A stretch of DNA of 64,000 bases from contig CAZTEX010000002.1 of NCBI GenBank assembly GCA_964612505.1, forward strand, positions 61,943 to 125,942, read 5' to 3'. Position 1 is the first letter of the stretch. Each line of letters starts with the position of its first letter. Source of the stretch: an uncultured bacterium. Its GTDB lineage: Bacteria > Chlamydiota > Chlamydiia > Chlamydiales > JAAZZY01. The position numbers were made by a program, and so were the translations under genes. Shown in pieces: positions 43,702 to 53,632 of the stretch. A model generated the notes under the pieces. It did not search any database. It saw nothing but the letters and a program-made list of their open reading frames with translations, and had not been told where the DNA came from.

Positions 43702-43740
43702 TGGAGAGCTCCATTTTGAAGTTTTAAATGAGTAAAATTC
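43702..43740. repeat. Degenerate copy (F) of the ssrA-associated att-flank repeat
   Basis: tGGAGAGctCCATTttGAAgTTTTaAaTGaGtAAAATTC versus copy D GGAGAGacgCATTcaGAAcTTTTgActGGGaTAAAATTCC (53595-53632). The shared TAAAATTC tail argues against chance. This is the weakest member. Confidence 0.3.
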
Positions 43741-43801
43741 AAAATTTAAAATAACATGCTTGTTTATGAAAAACACAAATATATCAAAGAGTAGTTAAAA
43801 G

Positions 43802-45037
43802 ATGAGCGCTTTTTTCAAGAGTAAGATCCAAGAATTTTCATTTATAGTTATCATCCTTTTTGCCTTTATTGCGTTCTATATCGAAACAGATATCTACACT
43901 CCAAGCTTTCCTCAAATGATGAACTATTTTGGAACCAATGAAGACACTATCCAAATGCTTTTAAGCATGAATTTCTTGGGATTATGTTTATCTTGTTTAT
44001 TCTTTGGGCCCGCTTCAGATGCATATGGAAGAAAACCCATTCTTTGCATTGGGTTATCTATTTTTATGTTAGGAAGCGTGGGTTGCGCAATGACTCATTC
44101 ACTAAATTGGATGATTGCCTTCCGTTTCCTACAAGGTATAGGATGTGGATCCATTACAAGCGCCGGACTCACTTTATTCTTCGATGTTTATCCCCCTAGT
44201 CAATCATCACGACTCGTATCTATGTGTAATGGAACTGTGGGTGGAATGATGGCGTTGGCCCCCATGCTTGGCAATTGGATCAGTCTTTCTGTAGGATGGA
44301 GAGCGAATTTTTATTTAATCGCCGTTCTTGCAACCCTTTCGTGCCTTTCAATTTGGTTTTTTATTAAAGAAACTCTGCCTATAGACAAAAGAGTCAAACT
44401 GAGTTTGCCTAATGTTTTGAAAAGCTATTACTCCATTCTCAAAAACTTTCCATTTATGGCTCATACTTTCATATGGTGCTTGGCCTTTAGTATGGTGATT
44501 GTTTTCATTGCTAATCTTTCATTAATTTTTGTTGATTACTTAGAGGTGCCTAAAGAAGTTTTTGGATACTATCAAACGGCAATTATGGGAGTTTTTTTTG
44601 TAGGTAGCATGAGTGGAGCTTATTTAATCAAAAAAACTGGAATGATTTCTACAAAAGCTTTGGGAAGCATGCTTTACATATTAGGAGTTGTGCTTCTTGC
44701 AGTCTTGTCGTTTTTAACCATATCTTCACCTTTATTAGTAATCGTTGCGATGTCTACGGCCAGTTTTGGATGCGCTCTTGCAGTGACCATCTATTTTACC
44801 TACTCTATGACTCATCTAGGGGATGGTCTAAAAGGTTCGGCTATGTCGTTAACCCAATCCCTTAGATTATTCTTATCATCGGGTTTAGTATGGGTTGCAG
44901 CAAGAGGGTTTGATGGAACCATACGACCTATGAGTATTCTTGCTATTGTTTGTACAGCTATAAGCTTACTACTTTATGCTGCTTTACATGTAAGAAAGCA
45001 GCATTTATCTCTCGATACTCAGGCAGAGAAAGAATAA
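43802..45037 (+). CDS. MFS multidrug-efflux transporter, Bcr/CflA subfamily
   Basis: 12 TM helices. N-terminal ...TDIYTPSFPQMMNYFGTNEDTIQMLLSMNFLGLCLSCLFFGPASDAYGRKPIL matches the Bcr/CflA signature region (G-x-x-S-D-x-x-GRK/R). Confidence 0.7.
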   Translation: MSAFFKSKIQEFSFIVIILFAFIAFYIETDIYTPSFPQMMNYFGTNEDTIQMLLSMNFLGLCLSCLFFGPASDAYGRKPILCIGLSIFMLGSVGCAMTHSLNWMIAFRFLQGIGCGSITSAGLTLFFDVYPPSQSSRLVSMCNGTVGGMMALAPMLGNWISLSVGWRANFYLIAVLATLSCLSIWFFIKETLPIDKRVKLSLPNVLKSYYSILKNFPFMAHTFIWCLAFSMVIVFIANLSLIFVDYLEVPKEVFGYYQTAIMGVFFVGSMSGAYLIKKTGMISTKALGSMLYILGVVLLAVLSFLTISSPLLVIVAMSTASFGCALAVTIYFTYSMTHLGDGLKGSAMSLTQSLRLFLSSGLVWVAARGFDGTIRPMSILAIVCTAISLLLYAALHVRKQHLSLDTQAEKE

Positions 45038-45044
45038 AGATTTA

Positions 45045-45971
45045 CTAATTTTTTTGACTACTGTGCATCTCTTTTAATGTTTCTGAAATTTTAGAAGATG
45101 AAAACATGGTTTCTCGAATTTGATCTGCGATTGCATTGGCATTTGAAGGAGAATGAGGAACAAAGATTGTATTTGTTTTGGAAGATGACCCCAGCTCTCG
45201 AAGCATATCAAAATACTGAATCATCAAAATCATCTCTGTTGCTTTTTCAACGTGCATCGTAGGAATCTGTTTATGCATCTCTTCTAATGATTGGCTTAAT
45301 CCTTCTATAATGGCCTGTCTTTGCCCAGCAACCCCTTTTCCATGCAATATATTAGCCTCAGCTTCCCCTTCTGCTTGTTTAACACGTAAAATCTTCTCTG
45401 CTTCCCCTTTTTCATTGGCTGCAATACGCAGTCTTTGAGCTGTATTAATTTCATTCATTGCATCTTTGATGTTTTGATTCGGTTCAATATCGGTAACAAG
45501 TGCCTTGATGATTTCATATCCAAATTCTGCCATAATCTCTCGAAGCTCATCTTTGACTTCTTTGGCAATCTCATCTTTTTTTGAAAAAACATCGTCCAAT
45601 TCAATCGTTGGTACTTTTGCTCGCACGACATCAAAAACGAAGGCTTGAATCTGCTGAGAAGGAGATTCAAGGCGATAAAAAGCGTCATAGATGGCAGATG
45701 GCATCGCACCATATTGAACAGCGCATGTGATTTTGACAAAAACATTGTCTTGAGTCTTTGTCTCAATATGCACATCTAATTGTTTGATTTTTAAATTTAC
45801 TTTCCCCGCTATTTTTTCTATAAAAGGCATTTTAAAATTTAACCCTGGCTTGGCGATGCGAGAGAAGCGCCCAAATCTTTCAACAACAACAGCTGTTTGT
45901 TGATGAACTAAAAATAAGCTAAAAGAAAGAGTTAACATAAAAAACAAAAGCACACAGCTAAAAATAATCAT
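45045..45971 (-). CDS. SPFH/band-7 (stomatin/prohibitin-like) membrane protein
   Basis: N-terminal TM anchor, then AVVVERFGRFSRIAKPGLNFKMPFIEKIA...LDVHIETKTQDNVFV and a coiled-coil C-terminus. No NfeD partner is adjacent. Confidence 0.8.
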   Translation of the reverse strand: MIIFSCVLLFFMLTLSFSLFLVHQQTAVVVERFGRFSRIAKPGLNFKMPFIEKIAGKVNLKIKQLDVHIETKTQDNVFVKITCAVQYGAMPSAIYDAFYRLESPSQQIQAFVFDVVRAKVPTIELDDVFSKKDEIAKEVKDELREIMAEFGYEIIKALVTDIEPNQNIKDAMNEINTAQRLRIAANEKGEAEKILRVKQAEGEAEANILHGKGVAGQRQAIIEGLSQSLEEMHKQIPTMHVEKATEMILMIQYFDMLRELGSSSKTNTIFVPHSPSNANAIADQIRETMFSSSKISETLKEMHSSQKN

Positions 45972-46180
45972 AACAACAACCTTTGAATAATCGACTTATA
46001 AAAATATCTCTTTTGAACAGTCTCAGTTTCGGAGGGAAGATTTTATAGATATTAAAAGAATAAAGGCAAGTTTTTAGCATTTAGCTTTTTGAGATTTGGA
46101 AGTGAAAGGTATATTCAAAATTTTTTACTGGCAAAAAATGATTCTTTTTTCAAATATCGTGTCTAAAAGCGAAGGCACCC

Positions 46181-46618
46181 ATGACAATTATTGAGCAACT
46201 AAATGAAGGCATCAAAGATGCAATGAGAAGCAGAGATCAAATTCGACTATCCACTTTGCGAATGCTTAAATCAAAAATTATGACTGTGGATGCTCGTTGC
46301 TCACTGCCTGACACAGAGGTCTTAAAGCTATTCAAAACATACTATGGAAGTATTCACGAGGCCATGGAACAAGCGCAAGCAGTCAATCGCCCAGAAGCTG
46401 CTGAACAGCTAAGAAGTGAGCTAAAAATCATTCAAGAGTTTTTACCAAAACCACTTTCTGCTGAAGAAACAAAAAAGCTCGTTGAACGGGCTATTTTGGA
46501 ATCGGGAGCTAAAACCAAAAAAGATTTAGGATTAGTTATGAAAGCGGTCATGAAACTCAATAGCTCTGCAGATGGCAAGCTAGCTAAGGATTTAGCAAGC
46601 CAGCTACTCGCTGATTAA
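46181..46618 (+). CDS. GatB/YqeY domain-containing protein
   Basis: MTIIEQLNEGIKDAMRSRDQIRLSTLRMLKSKI... is a canonical YqeY N-terminus. 145 aa. Confidence 0.8.
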   Translation: MTIIEQLNEGIKDAMRSRDQIRLSTLRMLKSKIMTVDARCSLPDTEVLKLFKTYYGSIHEAMEQAQAVNRPEAAEQLRSELKIIQEFLPKPLSAEETKKLVERAILESGAKTKKDLGLVMKAVMKLNSSADGKLAKDLASQLLAD

Positions 46619-52649: not shown

Positions 52650-52665
52650 CTATTGTTTCATTTTT

Positions 52666-52700
52666 TATATCTCAATGGAAGAAAAGAGCCATTCAGAACT
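52666..52700. repeat. Degenerate copy (C) of the att-flank repeat, 17 bp after the rpiB-like stop
   Basis: TGGAAGAAAAGAGCCATTCAGAACTTTTGAGTAGC versus D ...GGAGAGACGCATTCAGAACTTTTGACTGG. Confidence 0.4.
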
Positions 52701-52759
52701 TTTGAGTAGCAAGTGAGTGCTTGTAAAAGCAATCACTTCGAGCAAATGTGTATATTCAG

Positions 52760-53467
52760 CTAATTCTTTTTGAACATTGCCAAGATATGCCACTTTAGTA
52801 TTTCAGCATAAATCTGGGTATATCCCAACGCTTCTATTTTCTCTGTCAATTGCTCTGGCAGAAAAGCGTAGTGTGTTAATCCTTTTTCAGGGCCATTTTG
52901 AGGCACATAGGTCTGCTTATCATAGAATCGTAGGGTACAGCAAATGCCGCCATGTGAGTCCTCATACAAGCCGTCTCCAAGATCTTTGAGATCAAGTGAA
53001 TTAAAGTTTGCAGTCTTCACAATAAACAAGCCCCCATGCTTCAAGATCCGCGTGATCTCAACAAAAAGCTCCTCTATCTTCGGCAAGGTATTGTGATTCA
53101 ATGATTGAAATGCAATGGCTGCATCCAATGACCCGTCCTTAAATGGCAATGACTGGTACATATCCTGTTCAAGGACGTTAAGAGATACCTGAGCTTTTTG
53201 TGCTTTTGCTTTTGTCTTTTCAATGCCCTCATTGGAGATTTCCAGTGCATGCACAATCTTCCCTTGTTTTGCCAAAGCAACAGCAACAGTTCCATCGCCA
53301 GAGCCAAGATCAAGGACAGTTTGGACATTCTCCTGCTTAAAAAACTCCAGCATTTTTTGAGGGATATCAGCCTTGAAATGCCCATCAACGCTATCGTTTT
53401 TCCACACATCATCATACTGTTCCATAGATATCGAAACCCCTCTGCCTAACAAAAAACAAAGCAACAT
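52760..53467 (-). CDS. Class I SAM-dependent methyltransferase
   Basis: Motif I VLDLGSGDGTVAVALAKQGKIVHALEIS and post-I/II acidic residues. Confidence 0.7.
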   Translation of the reverse strand: MLLCFLLGRGVSISMEQYDDVWKNDSVDGHFKADIPQKMLEFFKQENVQTVLDLGSGDGTVAVALAKQGKIVHALEISNEGIEKTKAKAQKAQVSLNVLEQDMYQSLPFKDGSLDAAIAFQSLNHNTLPKIEELFVEITRILKHGGLFIVKTANFNSLDLKDLGDGLYEDSHGGICCTLRFYDKQTYVPQNGPEKGLTHYAFLPEQLTEKIEALGYTQIYAEILKWHILAMFKKN

Positions 53468-53573
53468 GGATTGATTGATTTTTCAGCTCGAATAAGATTT
53501 TGTCTTCGAACTGCAATGACCACTAGCTATTAATCATAGGTCGATGTTGCGATTTAGGCAATGAATTTTGAAG

Positions 53574-53632
53574 ATCATCCAACCAGTTGGAGGTGGAGAG
53601 ACGCATTCAGAACTTTTGACTGGGATAAAATT
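53574..53632. repeat. Direct repeat of the ssrA (tmRNA) 3' terminus plus downstream flank (attR/attL-like, copy D), followed by the extended repeat shared with copies A-C and F
   Basis: 53574-53601 GATCATCCAACCAgTTGGAGGTGGAGAGA equals 54469-54497 GATCATCCAACCAaTTGGAGGTGGAGAGA (28/29). The match spans the last 14 nt of tmRNA plus the 15 nt beyond it. It then continues CGCATTCAGAACTTTTGACTGGGATAAAATTCC to 53632. Confidence 0.7.

Follow-up and report, generated by a model that had tools for sequence, protein, structure and literature searches.

Direct repeats beside ssrA in an environmental chlamydia as probable attachment-site copies of serine-recombinase elements

A chain of degenerate direct repeats lies on the 3′ side of the tmRNA gene ssrA in the 64-kb stretch of chlamydial DNA analysed here (the window). 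A first-pass annotation took it for a cassette-like array with no integrase in view. What are these repeats, and how did they come to stand between small accessory genes? We put at about 85% the probability that they are attachment-site (att) copies from integrative elements of Chlamydiae whose large serine recombinase (LSR) targets the 3′ end of ssrA. Read this way, the array is what successive insertions at ssrA left behind as a fossil in an environmental chlamydia. It is now fixed, since 17 contigs of the same species carry it in the same order and the whole 64-kb window lacks an intact recombinase. That the arrangement is identical in all 17, with no recombination observed, also counts against the main reading.

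Anatomy of the attachment site

The repeated site consists of the last 14 nt of ssrA (TGGAGGTGGAGAGA; 54484-54497 on the + strand), which form the core, and a conserved 22-nt element arm (CGCATTCAGAACTTTTGAYTGG). Conservation of the arm extends to every position, codon third positions included, across elements with different tRNA targets and cores. Core plus arm was found 2-9 kb upstream of ssrA in many genomes, and to its left lies either a terminator hairpin (attL type) or the tail of a recombinase gene (attP type). Junctions of the tail type also carry the outer inverted motifs TCCAACCAAT and TTGAYTGGR, approximately equidistant from the core end, the symmetric arrangement that a serine-integrase attP should have.

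Where an element bears an LSR, the recombinase gene extends into the site, and its final codons encode ...PTNWRWR/DAFRTFDW across an attP-type junction and ...PTNWRWR/ESNSRP, the latter part being antisense ssrA, after integration. The peptide WRWRDAFRTFDW, earlier described as a conserved "pseudo-peptide", is indeed conserved but is not pseudo: in recombinase ORFs of other genomes it is the real LSR C-terminus where the gene spans an attP-type junction. Strand exchange probably falls at or adjoining the terminal GA of the core, 13-14 nt into ssrA, and with exchange at that point an incoming element must carry the last ssrA nucleotides, which keeps the gene intact.

Site copies, recombinase remnants and cargo in the window

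The features of the locus are as follows.

30929-30964, + strand: copy G, an intergenic relic with near-intact arm (GCA-TCAGAACTTTTGATTGG) and decayed core
43696-43731, + strand: copy F, a possible, strongly decayed att site; borderline
47247-47302, + strand: copy E, an attR-type relic (recombinase-tail remnant, core and 6 nt matching the ssrA T-loop)
50604-50639, + strand: copy A, a decayed att site (30/36)
50641-52142, + strand: Fic/DOC unit A-B (Fic ORF 50718-52142; Pfam Fic)
52092-52123, + strand: copy B, a truncated att site fused in frame to the Fic 3′ end
52191-52649, + strand: RpiB/LacA/LacB-family sugar-phosphate isomerase, unit B-C (Pfam, NCBIfam)
52676-52709, + strand: copy C, a decayed att site (TGGAAGAAAAGAG-CCATTCAGAACTTTTGAGTAG) with a 1-nt deletion
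52760-53467, - strand: class I SAM-dependent methyltransferase, unit C-D (Pfam Methyltransf_11/25)
53544-53587, + strand: 3′-end relic of a second recombinase gene, directly left of D
53588-53623, + strand: copy D, a pristine att site (core and arm) at an attP-type junction
53632-53773, + strand: C-terminal ~47 codons of an NAD(P)H-dependent FMN reductase, joined to the D arm at its end
53884-54216, + strand: 5′-truncated rhodanese gene (Pfam Rhodanese, profile positions 56-101 only)
54283-54513, + strand: LSR gene remnant, last 77 codons, at an attR-type junction
54484-54894, - strand: ssrA (ARAGORN; Rfam RF00023, 149 bits)

An nhmmer profile built from other genomes, with the window left out, recovered copies D (E=1.9e-14), C (E=5e-5), G (E=6e-4) and A (E=0.027). 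Gapless matches of at least 24/36 occurred at four places in the window (F, A, C and D), all on the + strand, where 0.047 were expected; on the minus strand there was neither a profile nor a gapless match. Copy D agrees at 35 of 36 positions with a consensus derived from other genomes only, and the region around it (53562-53601) forms a 40-nt repeat, 90% identical, with the ssrA junction (54458-54497). Gapped scores were 24 for A (0.05 chunks per strand are expected at 16 or more), 18.5 for G and 17 for C. The repeat family proposed earlier is real: D, A and C are significant against the other-genome consensus. B and F fall short of significance when judged by sequence statistics alone, which counts against the main reading. 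The core of C starts at 52676, not at 52666 as first given. Copy F reaches 24/36 without gaps (p ~0.04 per window) but was missed by the profile search of the window, and its gapped score of 13 is no better than chance. Copies E and G were absent from the first-pass annotation; E has a blastn match to the ssrA junction of locus L070, a recombinase-tail profile hit (E=0.003) and an alignment score of 44 versus a maximum of 27 in shuffles.

Copy B taken by itself is at chance level (E=14, score 12), yet it sits exactly where nucleotide homology to the Fic modules of L110, L089 and L111 stops (52097-52101), and it has 12 of 12 positions of copy A's arm variant. At the junction the natural Fic end, ...TGGAAAGAGA, is joined to GGCATTTGAAACT..., while L110 retains ~200 nt (3′ UTR, hairpin and core) at the same place. 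Copy B is an L110-like Fic-hairpin-att junction minus ~200 nt, the deletion having fused Fic to B. Copy A has orthologues in L110, L089, L108 and L149, where they likewise lie left of Fic, and its 6/36 departures from the consensus are comparable to those of the neighbouring Fic gene, which has diverged from L110 by 14%.

An integrase remnant is in fact in view. The 77 LSR codons abutting ssrA correspond to residues 420-496 of a 496-aa relative, are convergent with ssrA and read through the core into antisense ssrA. They are 93.5% identical over 77 aa to the L068 recombinase (tblastn) and match the tail profile with E=2.5e-44. Their homologues are named site-specific recombinase and carry PF00239/PF07508, full-length relatives of ~500 aa having Resolvase, Recombinase and Zn_ribbon_recom domains. 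With the second relic (tail profile match 53544-53601, E=7e-8) and copy E, the tail profile finds three recombinase relics in the window, at ssrA, D and E, and none at copies A, B or C. Had every unit brought an LSR of its own, three deletions would need to have stopped at the core or within it, a point against the main reading.

One gene per unit, as first described, holds for A-B, B-C and C-D but not for D-ssrA, which contains three 5′-truncated genes (FMN reductase, rhodanese and recombinase). Full-length homologues of the reductase (P0109 and P0114, 186-187 aa) share its ending. The rhodanese frame is open from 53884 with no start codon before 54007, so that its N-terminus is probably truncated, and what had been taken for an intact rhodanese cassette is the remnant of a decayed element. 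Upstream of the Fic ORF lie conserved repeats with a GGCCGTA core (50659-50765; four direct and one inverted), most direct copies reading TGGCCGTAT; these recur in six other contexts, and many chlamydial contigs encode a Fic homologue (70-91% identity). Homology of the RpiB gene to its relatives ends at the ORF ends. Since those relatives stand in varied contexts, one amid cell-wall synthesis genes, and have no att sites, the B-C unit is only putatively foreign. GC content is 0.405-0.413 at 49-55 kb versus ~0.37 elsewhere, and the region from 28 to 54 kb is dense in accessory-type genes.

Arrays in other chlamydiae and the origin of the repeats

We found 144 such sites in about 150 chlamydial loci, all in direct orientation, and in every locus holding both ssrA and att sites the sites were on the 3′ side of that gene. 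Of 80 chlamydial genome loci, ~35 have a recombinase gene whose 3′ end overlaps that of the tmRNA gene, and the remainder include overlaps with tRNA-Tyr, Leu, Met or Asn. Taken together, the arrays of mostly single-gene units in these relatives look like an undescribed, cassette-style way of collecting genes, and we found no description of such a chlamydial array in the literature.

The repeated insertion into a regenerated ssrA att site that the first-pass annotation proposed is supported by the pristine D, the degraded A, B and C, the three tail relics and the similar arrays elsewhere. On this history each insertion on the ssrA side would displace older units and att copies outward, and the window would record at least four to five events. 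We infer that D is the youngest site, still intact, with A, B, C and perhaps F and G older and decaying; a gradient of decay, with D at 35/36, A at 30/36 and C and B lower, fits different ages. Resident LSR genes have been deleted to 45-230-nt tails at ssrA, D and E, and the units trimmed to single genes by deletions. The small units may have travelled with their own recombinase, later lost, or been mobilised in trans. Two points stand against successive insertion: a second insertion at attR would break the standard serine-integrase rules (attP x attB only), and these rules do not predict the array-specific duplication of a 45-60-nt left flank that we see in L089, L110, L143 and L168.

A true cassette platform is a tentative possibility that we take seriously but do not favour. 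Each recombinase-less unit would then comprise arm, one gene, terminator hairpin and core copy, and an LSR encoded elsewhere or next to ssrA would excise and insert units in trans; the system would be integron-like, with a serine recombinase and ssrA as docking site, and the window an inactive, decayed example. The median length of the 54 att-to-att units is ~1.2 kb; 31 of them contain exactly one ORF, and most lack a recombinase. A tail relic occurs at just 11 of 142 junctions, and a strong hairpin stands directly left of the core at 54% of the others, against 5% of controls. Pristine sites are numerous in many arrays (six in L155; four each in L113, L116, L122 and L172), and the very diverse cargo recurs among changed neighbours: the Fic unit is in five arrays, and a RhuM-like gene and an AAA_14/DUF4143 gene behave likewise. 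This much lends support to the cassette-like character claimed at first. On the other hand, neither a circular cassette nor an empty site was seen, cargo orientation is random (29+/25-), and the Fic module also occurs among core genes without att sites. The outer CCAAYCAA motif that marks the tail-type attP is missing from the left arm of these junctions, which makes them attL-type by known serine-integrase rules, so that they should be inert without a directionality factor. The hairpin flank, moreover, is specific to the array and not to the cargo, a misfit with cassettes drawn from a common pool.

It is improbable that only one or two large LSR islands arrived and that the internal repeats came later from duplication, gene conversion or homologous recombination among att copies, with internal deletions. 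Such processes would suit the near-identical flank-core-arm modules within arrays (81 nt at 95% identity in L089; ~80 nt in L110), the flank of at least 55 nt common to the distal att site and ssrA in L143 and L168, and the pairing of arm variants, GCATTTGAAACT in A and B and CATTCAGAACT in C and D. They do not suit the three separate tail relics, the graded decay, the absence of any sequence common to the window's units outside the att module, or a Fic unit that is att-bounded in four other genomes with different neighbours.

A generic intergenic repeat (REP-like, 3′-UTR or terminator element) with no tie to integration, the alternative first offered, is very hard to credit: copies A, B and C do lie directly 3′ of + strand stop codons and a hairpin precedes many sites in other genomes, but the repeat holds ssrA's own last 14 nt, is continuous with the recombinase ORF at attP-type junctions, keeps its arm at third codon positions across elements with different tRNA targets and runs in one direction on the ssrA 3′ side only, in the window and at all ssrA-containing loci.

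Comparison with known systems

The closest known systems are the Dehalococcoides ssrA islands, SCC composites and tycheposons, and the array is less novel than first supposed: tandem serine-recombinase islands at ssrA are known from Dehalococcoides (PMC3146451, 2011), and recombinase-less array units from SCC. Like the chlamydial arrays, the Dehalococcoides islands target the 3′ end of the single-copy tmRNA gene, stand in tandem downstream of it with direct repeats of the ssrA 3′ end as borders and conserved sequence around each repeat, and have a large serine recombinase (~500-540 aa), likened here by type and size (PMC3146451). Fifteen of 31 islands lack an integration module and were read as cis-mobilisable or fixed, and signatures are lost in older regions (PMC3146451). 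The repeat differs, being 14 nt of ssrA plus the 22-nt arm in chlamydiae versus 20 bp of ssrA in Dehalococcoides, and so does the recombinase gene: ssrA-proximal, convergent with ssrA and spanning the att site in the former, beside attL on the reverse strand, in a six-gene module with a second small recombinase, in the latter (PMC3146451). Median chlamydial att-to-att spacing is ~1.2 kb and the units are mostly single-gene, whereas Dehalococcoides islands have multi-gene cargo, often with the six-gene integration module (PMC3146451).

In the tycheposons and additive islands of Prochlorococcus (bioRxiv 10.1101/2020.12.28.424599), older elements are likewise pushed further into the island as new ones integrate at the same tRNA or tmRNA gene, and fragmented integrases and partial tDNA repeats of older events are present there. 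Small adaptive cargo accompanies a primase/helicase there, and in the intact chlamydial island L068 an AAA_25/CHC2 primase-helicase similarly adjoins the LSR. Tycheposons, however, have tyrosine recombinases (910/937) and repeats that are partial tRNAs, unlike the serine recombinases and core-plus-arm repeats of the chlamydial arrays, and arrays of many single-gene units are not described in that work (bioRxiv 10.1101/2020.12.28.424599).

Integrons, like the chlamydial arrays, consist of small and very diverse units that mostly hold one gene and have a recombination site as their boundary, and both kinds of array are anchored at a single docking site beside a recombinase gene. Their recombinase IntI is a tyrosine enzyme, though, and attC is an imperfect palindrome recombined as a folded single strand, whereas the chlamydial site is a conserved direct sequence of 36-38 nt with a variable hairpin beside it. 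Integron cassettes are mostly promoterless and co-oriented, in contrast to the random orientation of chlamydial cargo.

SCC elements target rlmH (orfX) rather than ssrA, and their recombinases lie away from the junction with no att overlap, unlike the chlamydial LSR. As in chlamydiae, the large serine recombinases of SCC/SCCmec (CcrAB/CcrC) insert at the 3′ end of a conserved single-copy gene, and tandem or nested composites carry an att repeat at each junction. Att-paired SCC elements without recombinase genes exist, as do the chlamydial units of that kind, and SCC elements are generally far larger than those units. A tool for SCC extraction accepts elements of 1-200 kb.

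Repeat copies and the recombinase gene at ssrA

The first-pass annotation described a chain of degenerate direct repeats (copies A, B, C, D and F) related to the end of ssrA, an observation that was largely right and was borne out for D, A and C by a profile and by gapless and gapped statistics. We refer to the last 14 nt of ssrA as the core, to the 22-nt part contributed by the element as the arm, and to the two together as the att site. A repeat finder returned a 40-nt repeat of 90% identity (53562-53601 versus 54458-54497) and also recovered A/B/D and A/C/D families. Allowing 3 mismatches or fewer, the degenerate consensus of that annotation matched A and D alone, with zero matches expected, and missed B and C because both contain indels. 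The window was searched with an att profile of 17 sites, all from other genomes, and with a profile of the recombinase tail, the 3' end of the recombinase gene abutting the core, built from 37 genomes. Copies E and G were added in the course of this analysis.

Repeat copies, ssrA and recombinase relics in the window (gapless values are matches out of 36)
30948-30964 (profile match), copy G, new: att profile E=6e-4; gapped score 18.5
43696, plus strand, copy F: missed by the att profile; gapless 24/36; gapped score 13, chance level
47247-47296, recombinase-tail relic of copy E: tail profile E=0.003
50604, plus strand, copy A: att profile E=0.027; gapless 30/36; gapped score 24
52092, copy B: att profile E=14; gapped score 12, chance level
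52686-52709 (profile match), plus strand, copy C: att profile E=5e-5; gapless 24/36; gapped score 17
53544-53601, recombinase-tail relic left of copy D: tail profile E=7e-8
53588, plus strand, copy D: att profile E=1.9e-14; gapless 35/36; gapped score 34
54335-54497, recombinase-tail relic at ssrA: tail profile E=2.5e-44
54484-54894, minus strand, ssrA (tmRNA): ARAGORN; Rfam 149 bits

When both strands of the window were scanned without gaps, D, A, C and F alone reached at least 22/36, all on the plus strand and 0.9-11 kb from the ssrA 3' end; the expectation at 24/36 or better is 0.047 per window. At 21/36 or better, 7 of 8 matches lay on the plus strand and all were within 24 kb of the ssrA 3' end. 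Copies B and F, also proposed in the first-pass annotation, were at chance in the gapped scan, and F is a borderline site, with 24/36 gapless matches yet no support from the profile or from attR alignment. Copy G (30929-30964) is an intergenic relic, GCA-TCAGAACTTTTGATTGG, that retains 20/21 of the arm with one deletion. It has the same orientation as the array and is 23.5 kb away from ssrA. The Band7-YqeY intergenic region (46097-46131) also contains an att-like string, TGGAAGTGAAAGGTATATTCAAAATTTTTTACTGG, which is weak, with a chance-level gapped score of 12.5.

On the plus strand the ssrA 3' end reads TGGAGGTGGAGAGA|ATCGAAC, and an ORF (54262-54660) enters ssrA from the left. The fused tail peptide had no Pfam or NCBIfam match, and its identity was obtained from the homologue search alone, which yielded ~140 homologues, several of them named site-specific recombinase or carrying PF00239/PF07508. 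Following a common ...EPF.TM.DYK.CPTNWRWR, the homologues end in one of two ways. The ending ...ESNSRPK is antisense ssrA and marks the integrated state, while ...DAFRTFDW is exactly the conserved "pseudo-peptide" of the first-pass annotation. The peptide is real: it is the true end of a recombinase whose gene crosses an attP-type junction. Two full-length relatives of ~500 aa (L068:6831-8321 and L017:7663-9168, in other chlamydial loci) carry PF00239, PF07508 and PF13408 (Resolvase, Recombinase and Zn_ribbon_recom), and the recombinases are therefore large serine recombinases (LSRs). An integrase is thus in view after all, because LSR residues 420-496, 93.5% identical to L068, run into ssrA. 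They are all that is left of the LSR in the window, and no second copy of them was found elsewhere in the 64 kb. By sequence, no PDB relative of the LSR was found at E<=1e-3.

The recombinase C-terminus switches upon integration from ...WRWRDAFRTFDW... to ...WRWRESNSRPK... (proteins P0021/P0036 versus P0001/P0003; window 54484-54660). A similar change occurs when phage Mx8 integrates (IntP/IntX). L068 544-8321 is an apparently intact 7.7-kb element followed by ssrA, consisting of an att site, DUF1398, an aldo-keto reductase, a 477-aa protein, SpoVG, an AAA_25/CHC2 primase-helicase, a 172-aa protein and the LSR; there was no second recombinase in this island, which makes a good reference for the family.

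Anatomy and targets of the att site

We scanned one genome per species for the recombinase and obtained 80 loci, nearly all of them in Chlamydiae MAGs. The 3' end of the LSR gene overlapped the tmRNA 3' end at ~35 of the 80, and elsewhere it overlapped tRNA-Tyr, Leu, Met or Asn. The arm, GCATTCAGAACTTTTGA(Y)TGG, lies 2-9 kb upstream of ssrA, often free of mismatches, and is directly preceded by the core, TGGAGGTGGAGAGAC. To the left of the core is either a terminator-like hairpin (attL type) or, at tandem junctions of the attP type, the LSR tail. Of the window sites, D and A belong to the arm type and 54484 to the attR type. Elements targeting tRNA-Tyr have the same arm and a different core (TGGGGGCGGTTGGAC), so that the arm is the element's own and the core is copied from the target. 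One half-site thus appears to be fixed while the other follows the target. Sister recombinases were seen at the 3' ends of tRNA-Tyr (L028, L030, L036-L040, L043), tRNA-Leu (L064, L067), tRNA-Met (L055) and tRNA-Asn (L086, L088; candidate-phyla genomes), and the Tyr-type sites of L037 and L040 combine the other core with the same arm.

Tail-type junctions carry two outer motifs, TCCAACCAAT and TTGAYTGGR, which match in inverted orientation at 8/11 positions and lie ~13 nt to each side of the terminal GA of the core, and when attP-type junctions are compared with ssrA junctions, identity stops at this GA. From these alignments we infer an attP of ~46 bp and an exchange at or next to the terminal GA, 13-14 nt inside ssrA; with exchange at that point, the element must bring the last nucleotides of ssrA with it. 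Hybrid flanks were present in L084/L140, L141, L017 and L048, where the far end is hairpin-core-arm and the near end is tail-core-ssrA. Chlamydiae are hard to manipulate genetically, and a site-specific integration tool for them could be based on three parts: the ~46-bp attP candidate, the natural attB candidate that a conserved gene provides, and an integrase made of a single protein of ~500 aa.

The fossil in the window belongs to a widespread element family that is specific for ssrA and tRNA genes and is apparently undescribed; literature searches for ssrA islands or serine-recombinase islands in chlamydiae gave no relevant result.

Arrays of small, mostly single-gene units in other chlamydiae

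A pristine 32-mer of the site occurred in 74 metagenome contigs. Pooling these with the genome loci (~150 loci) gave 144 full-length sites, none of them inverted within any locus, and in every locus holding both ssrA and att sites the sites were 3' of ssrA. A generic REP-like element would be present in many copies, in both orientations and regardless of locus, a pattern found neither in the 64 kb, where the sites are mostly on one strand and near ssrA, nor among the 144 sites elsewhere. The stretches between att sites (n=54) measured 417-7464 nt with a median of ~1.2 kb, and 31 of them held exactly one ORF of at least 80 aa. Their cargo was diverse, including Fic, methyltransferases, oxidoreductases, ATPases and regulators, and the longest ORF was on the plus strand in 29 units and on the minus strand in 25; in the window, Fic and RpiB are on the plus strand and the methyltransferase is on the minus strand. 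The sites are conserved direct 36-38-mers whose information content is zero left of position -2. A tail relic was present at only 11 of 142 junctions, and a hairpin of -12 kcal/mol or lower stood just left of the core at 54% of the junctions lacking one, versus 5% of controls. These hairpins are frequent, variable and outside the conserved block.

The 45-60 nt left of the core were specific to the array and not to the cargo. The same left flank recurred at three junctions in L089 and at two in L110, two variants of one hairpin family surrounded Fic in L149, and in L143 and L168 one flank of at least 55 nt occurred at the distal att site and again immediately beside ssrA. The duplicated flank of L168 (2040-2090 and 8930-8981) is made up of TGTCCTA-type short repeats (TTGTCCTATGTGTCCTAAATGTCCTATTTGTCCTAG) with no hairpin. 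A simple attP x attB exchange would not yield a second copy of the bacterial arm, and canonical serine integrases do not insert into attR; we could not derive the array-specific duplication from such chemistry. Possibly units cycle within a lineage and take the ssrA-proximal flank along, or the recombinase is less strict, a property that has been reported for the SCC recombinase CcrAB; a contribution from homologous recombination is also possible.

The closest known system is the ssrA islands of Dehalococcoides, with which the chlamydial loci share an LSR and tandem islands that are bounded by ssrA-end repeats and in many cases lack an integration module (PMC3146451). The Dehalococcoides islands often carry a six-gene module (DsiB, DsiA, RecF-like, ParB, Mom and an embedded tRNA-like gene) beside attL on the reverse strand (PMC3146451), whereas the chlamydial loci lack this module and have the LSR at the ssrA-proximal end, overlapping the att site. 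SCC composite elements and tycheposons are also close. The chlamydial system differs from all of these in that the recombinase ORF crosses the site, every repeat carries a fixed element arm, the recombinase is ssrA-proximal and the units are cassette-sized. It also lacks every defining feature of an integron: the recombinase is of the serine type instead of a tyrosine recombinase (IntI) beside attI, and no tyrosine integrase was seen in the array region of the window; the sites are conserved direct repeats instead of attC, an imperfect palindrome of variable sequence and conserved structure; and the cargo lies on both strands, unlike the co-oriented, mostly promoterless cassettes of integrons.

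We consider it possible, at a probability of about 0.3, that environmental chlamydiae capture genes through an integron-like platform in which the recombinase is of the serine type, ssrA is the docking site and the cassettes are moved in trans. The cassettes would be marked by the 36-38-bp site (the last 14 nt of ssrA plus the fixed 22-nt arm). Each would hold a single gene and no recombinase, would supply a replacement for the ssrA end and a terminator, and would depend on a recombinase in trans for insertion and excision, so that array content would change over time and cassettes would pass between lineages. The window would represent a decayed array that has become frozen. If small units do move without a recombinase of their own, the system would be the serine-recombinase counterpart of the integron. 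Chlamydiae have few known mobile elements, and how they gain genes is under debate; the family described here stocks the zone downstream of ssrA with diverse accessory genes.

Decay of the window array and its units

The outcome for the window alone is less far-reaching: an inactive, decayed and frozen fossil array whose parts are now explained. The original interpretation, repeated insertion at a regenerated ssrA att site with decay of the older copies, is supported, with corrections. Remnants of three genes occupy the D-ssrA interval: an FMN reductase reduced to its last ~47 codons (P0109 and P0114 are full-length relatives), a rhodanese frame with no start codon, and the LSR tail. An identical tail ORF was found in 17 contigs of the same species with the same gene order in 17/17, indicating that the array is fixed in this species. 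GC content is 0.405-0.413 at 49-55 kb versus ~0.37 elsewhere. Accessory-type genes (MerR/TipAS, APH, GNAT, glyoxalase, methyltransferases, an MFS efflux pump, TetR, PadR, FAD monooxygenase and others) occupy 28-54 kb. Since they fill 31-54 kb, and with copy G at 23.5 kb from ssrA, the accretion zone may be ~24 kb long.

In copy E (47247-47302), between a 157-aa ORF and a RibD_C gene, the tail relic runs on into the core and ATCGAA, 6 nt that match the ssrA T-loop. Its alignment score was 44, versus 27 or less in shuffled windows, and it matches the L070 junction; on this alignment copy E qualifies as an attR-type relic. This suggests an older state in which the ssrA 3' end, or a copy of it, lay at this position; the block at 47.3-50.6 kb (RibD_C, TetR, Cdd1, PadR and FAD monooxygenase) may be a separate insertion that displaced it.

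The A-B unit is homologous to the Fic modules of other genomes, with 86% identity to L110 over 50603-52101 and matches to L089 (50611-52097) and L111 (50641-52100). Synteny does not extend to the left of A: the FAD monooxygenase next to A shares only 26% identity with the FAD monooxygenase on the left side of the L110 Fic gene. Downstream of its Fic stop, L110 has ~150 nt, then a hairpin and a perfect att site. The native end of Fic, ...TGGAAAGAGAT, is similar to the core, and in the window ...TGGAAAGAGA is joined directly to GGCATTTGAAACT. Copy B, with its chance-level score, is supported by context, the end of the Fic-module homology, and so corresponds to an L110-like junction minus ~200 nt, a loss that ends at the proposed exchange point. 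In another genome, protein P0111 joins a Fic-domain N-terminus to a recombinase tail whose frame continues into a tRNA, a deletion product of the copy-B kind.

A Fic unit lies between two att sites in the window, L089, L110 and L149/L151, with different neighbours each time, and between an att site and ssrA, with no recombinase, in L108; two other cargo genes also recur in different arrays. The module was also found alone between core genes and with no att sites (L104 7557-8912, L106 9772-11118, L111 3792-5153), at 85-89% aa identity and with its upstream repeats, and it seems to have been moved or retained by another route too. Neighbours of the lone Fic include EPSP synthase, poly(A) polymerase and a DTW-domain gene, as well as CDP-alcohol phosphatidyltransferase and a glycosyltransferase.

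RpiB is unsupported as a travelling cassette. The close homologues examined (68-81% aa) stood in other contexts: one has a murC/ddl-like ligase and further cell-wall genes as neighbours, and several are followed downstream by an ABM monooxygenase; their homology was limited to the ORF and no att sites were found near them. A short att-like string after RpiB in L095 was statistically not significant.

Between copy A and the Fic start (50659-50765) are four direct and one inverted repeat with the core GGCCGTA, most of the direct copies reading TGGCCGTAT. All Fic homologues examined had similar repeats upstream, across six other contexts, some with att sites and some lacking them. The TGGCCGTAT-type repeats are candidate operators, and the winged-helix N-terminal part of Fic itself may be what binds them.
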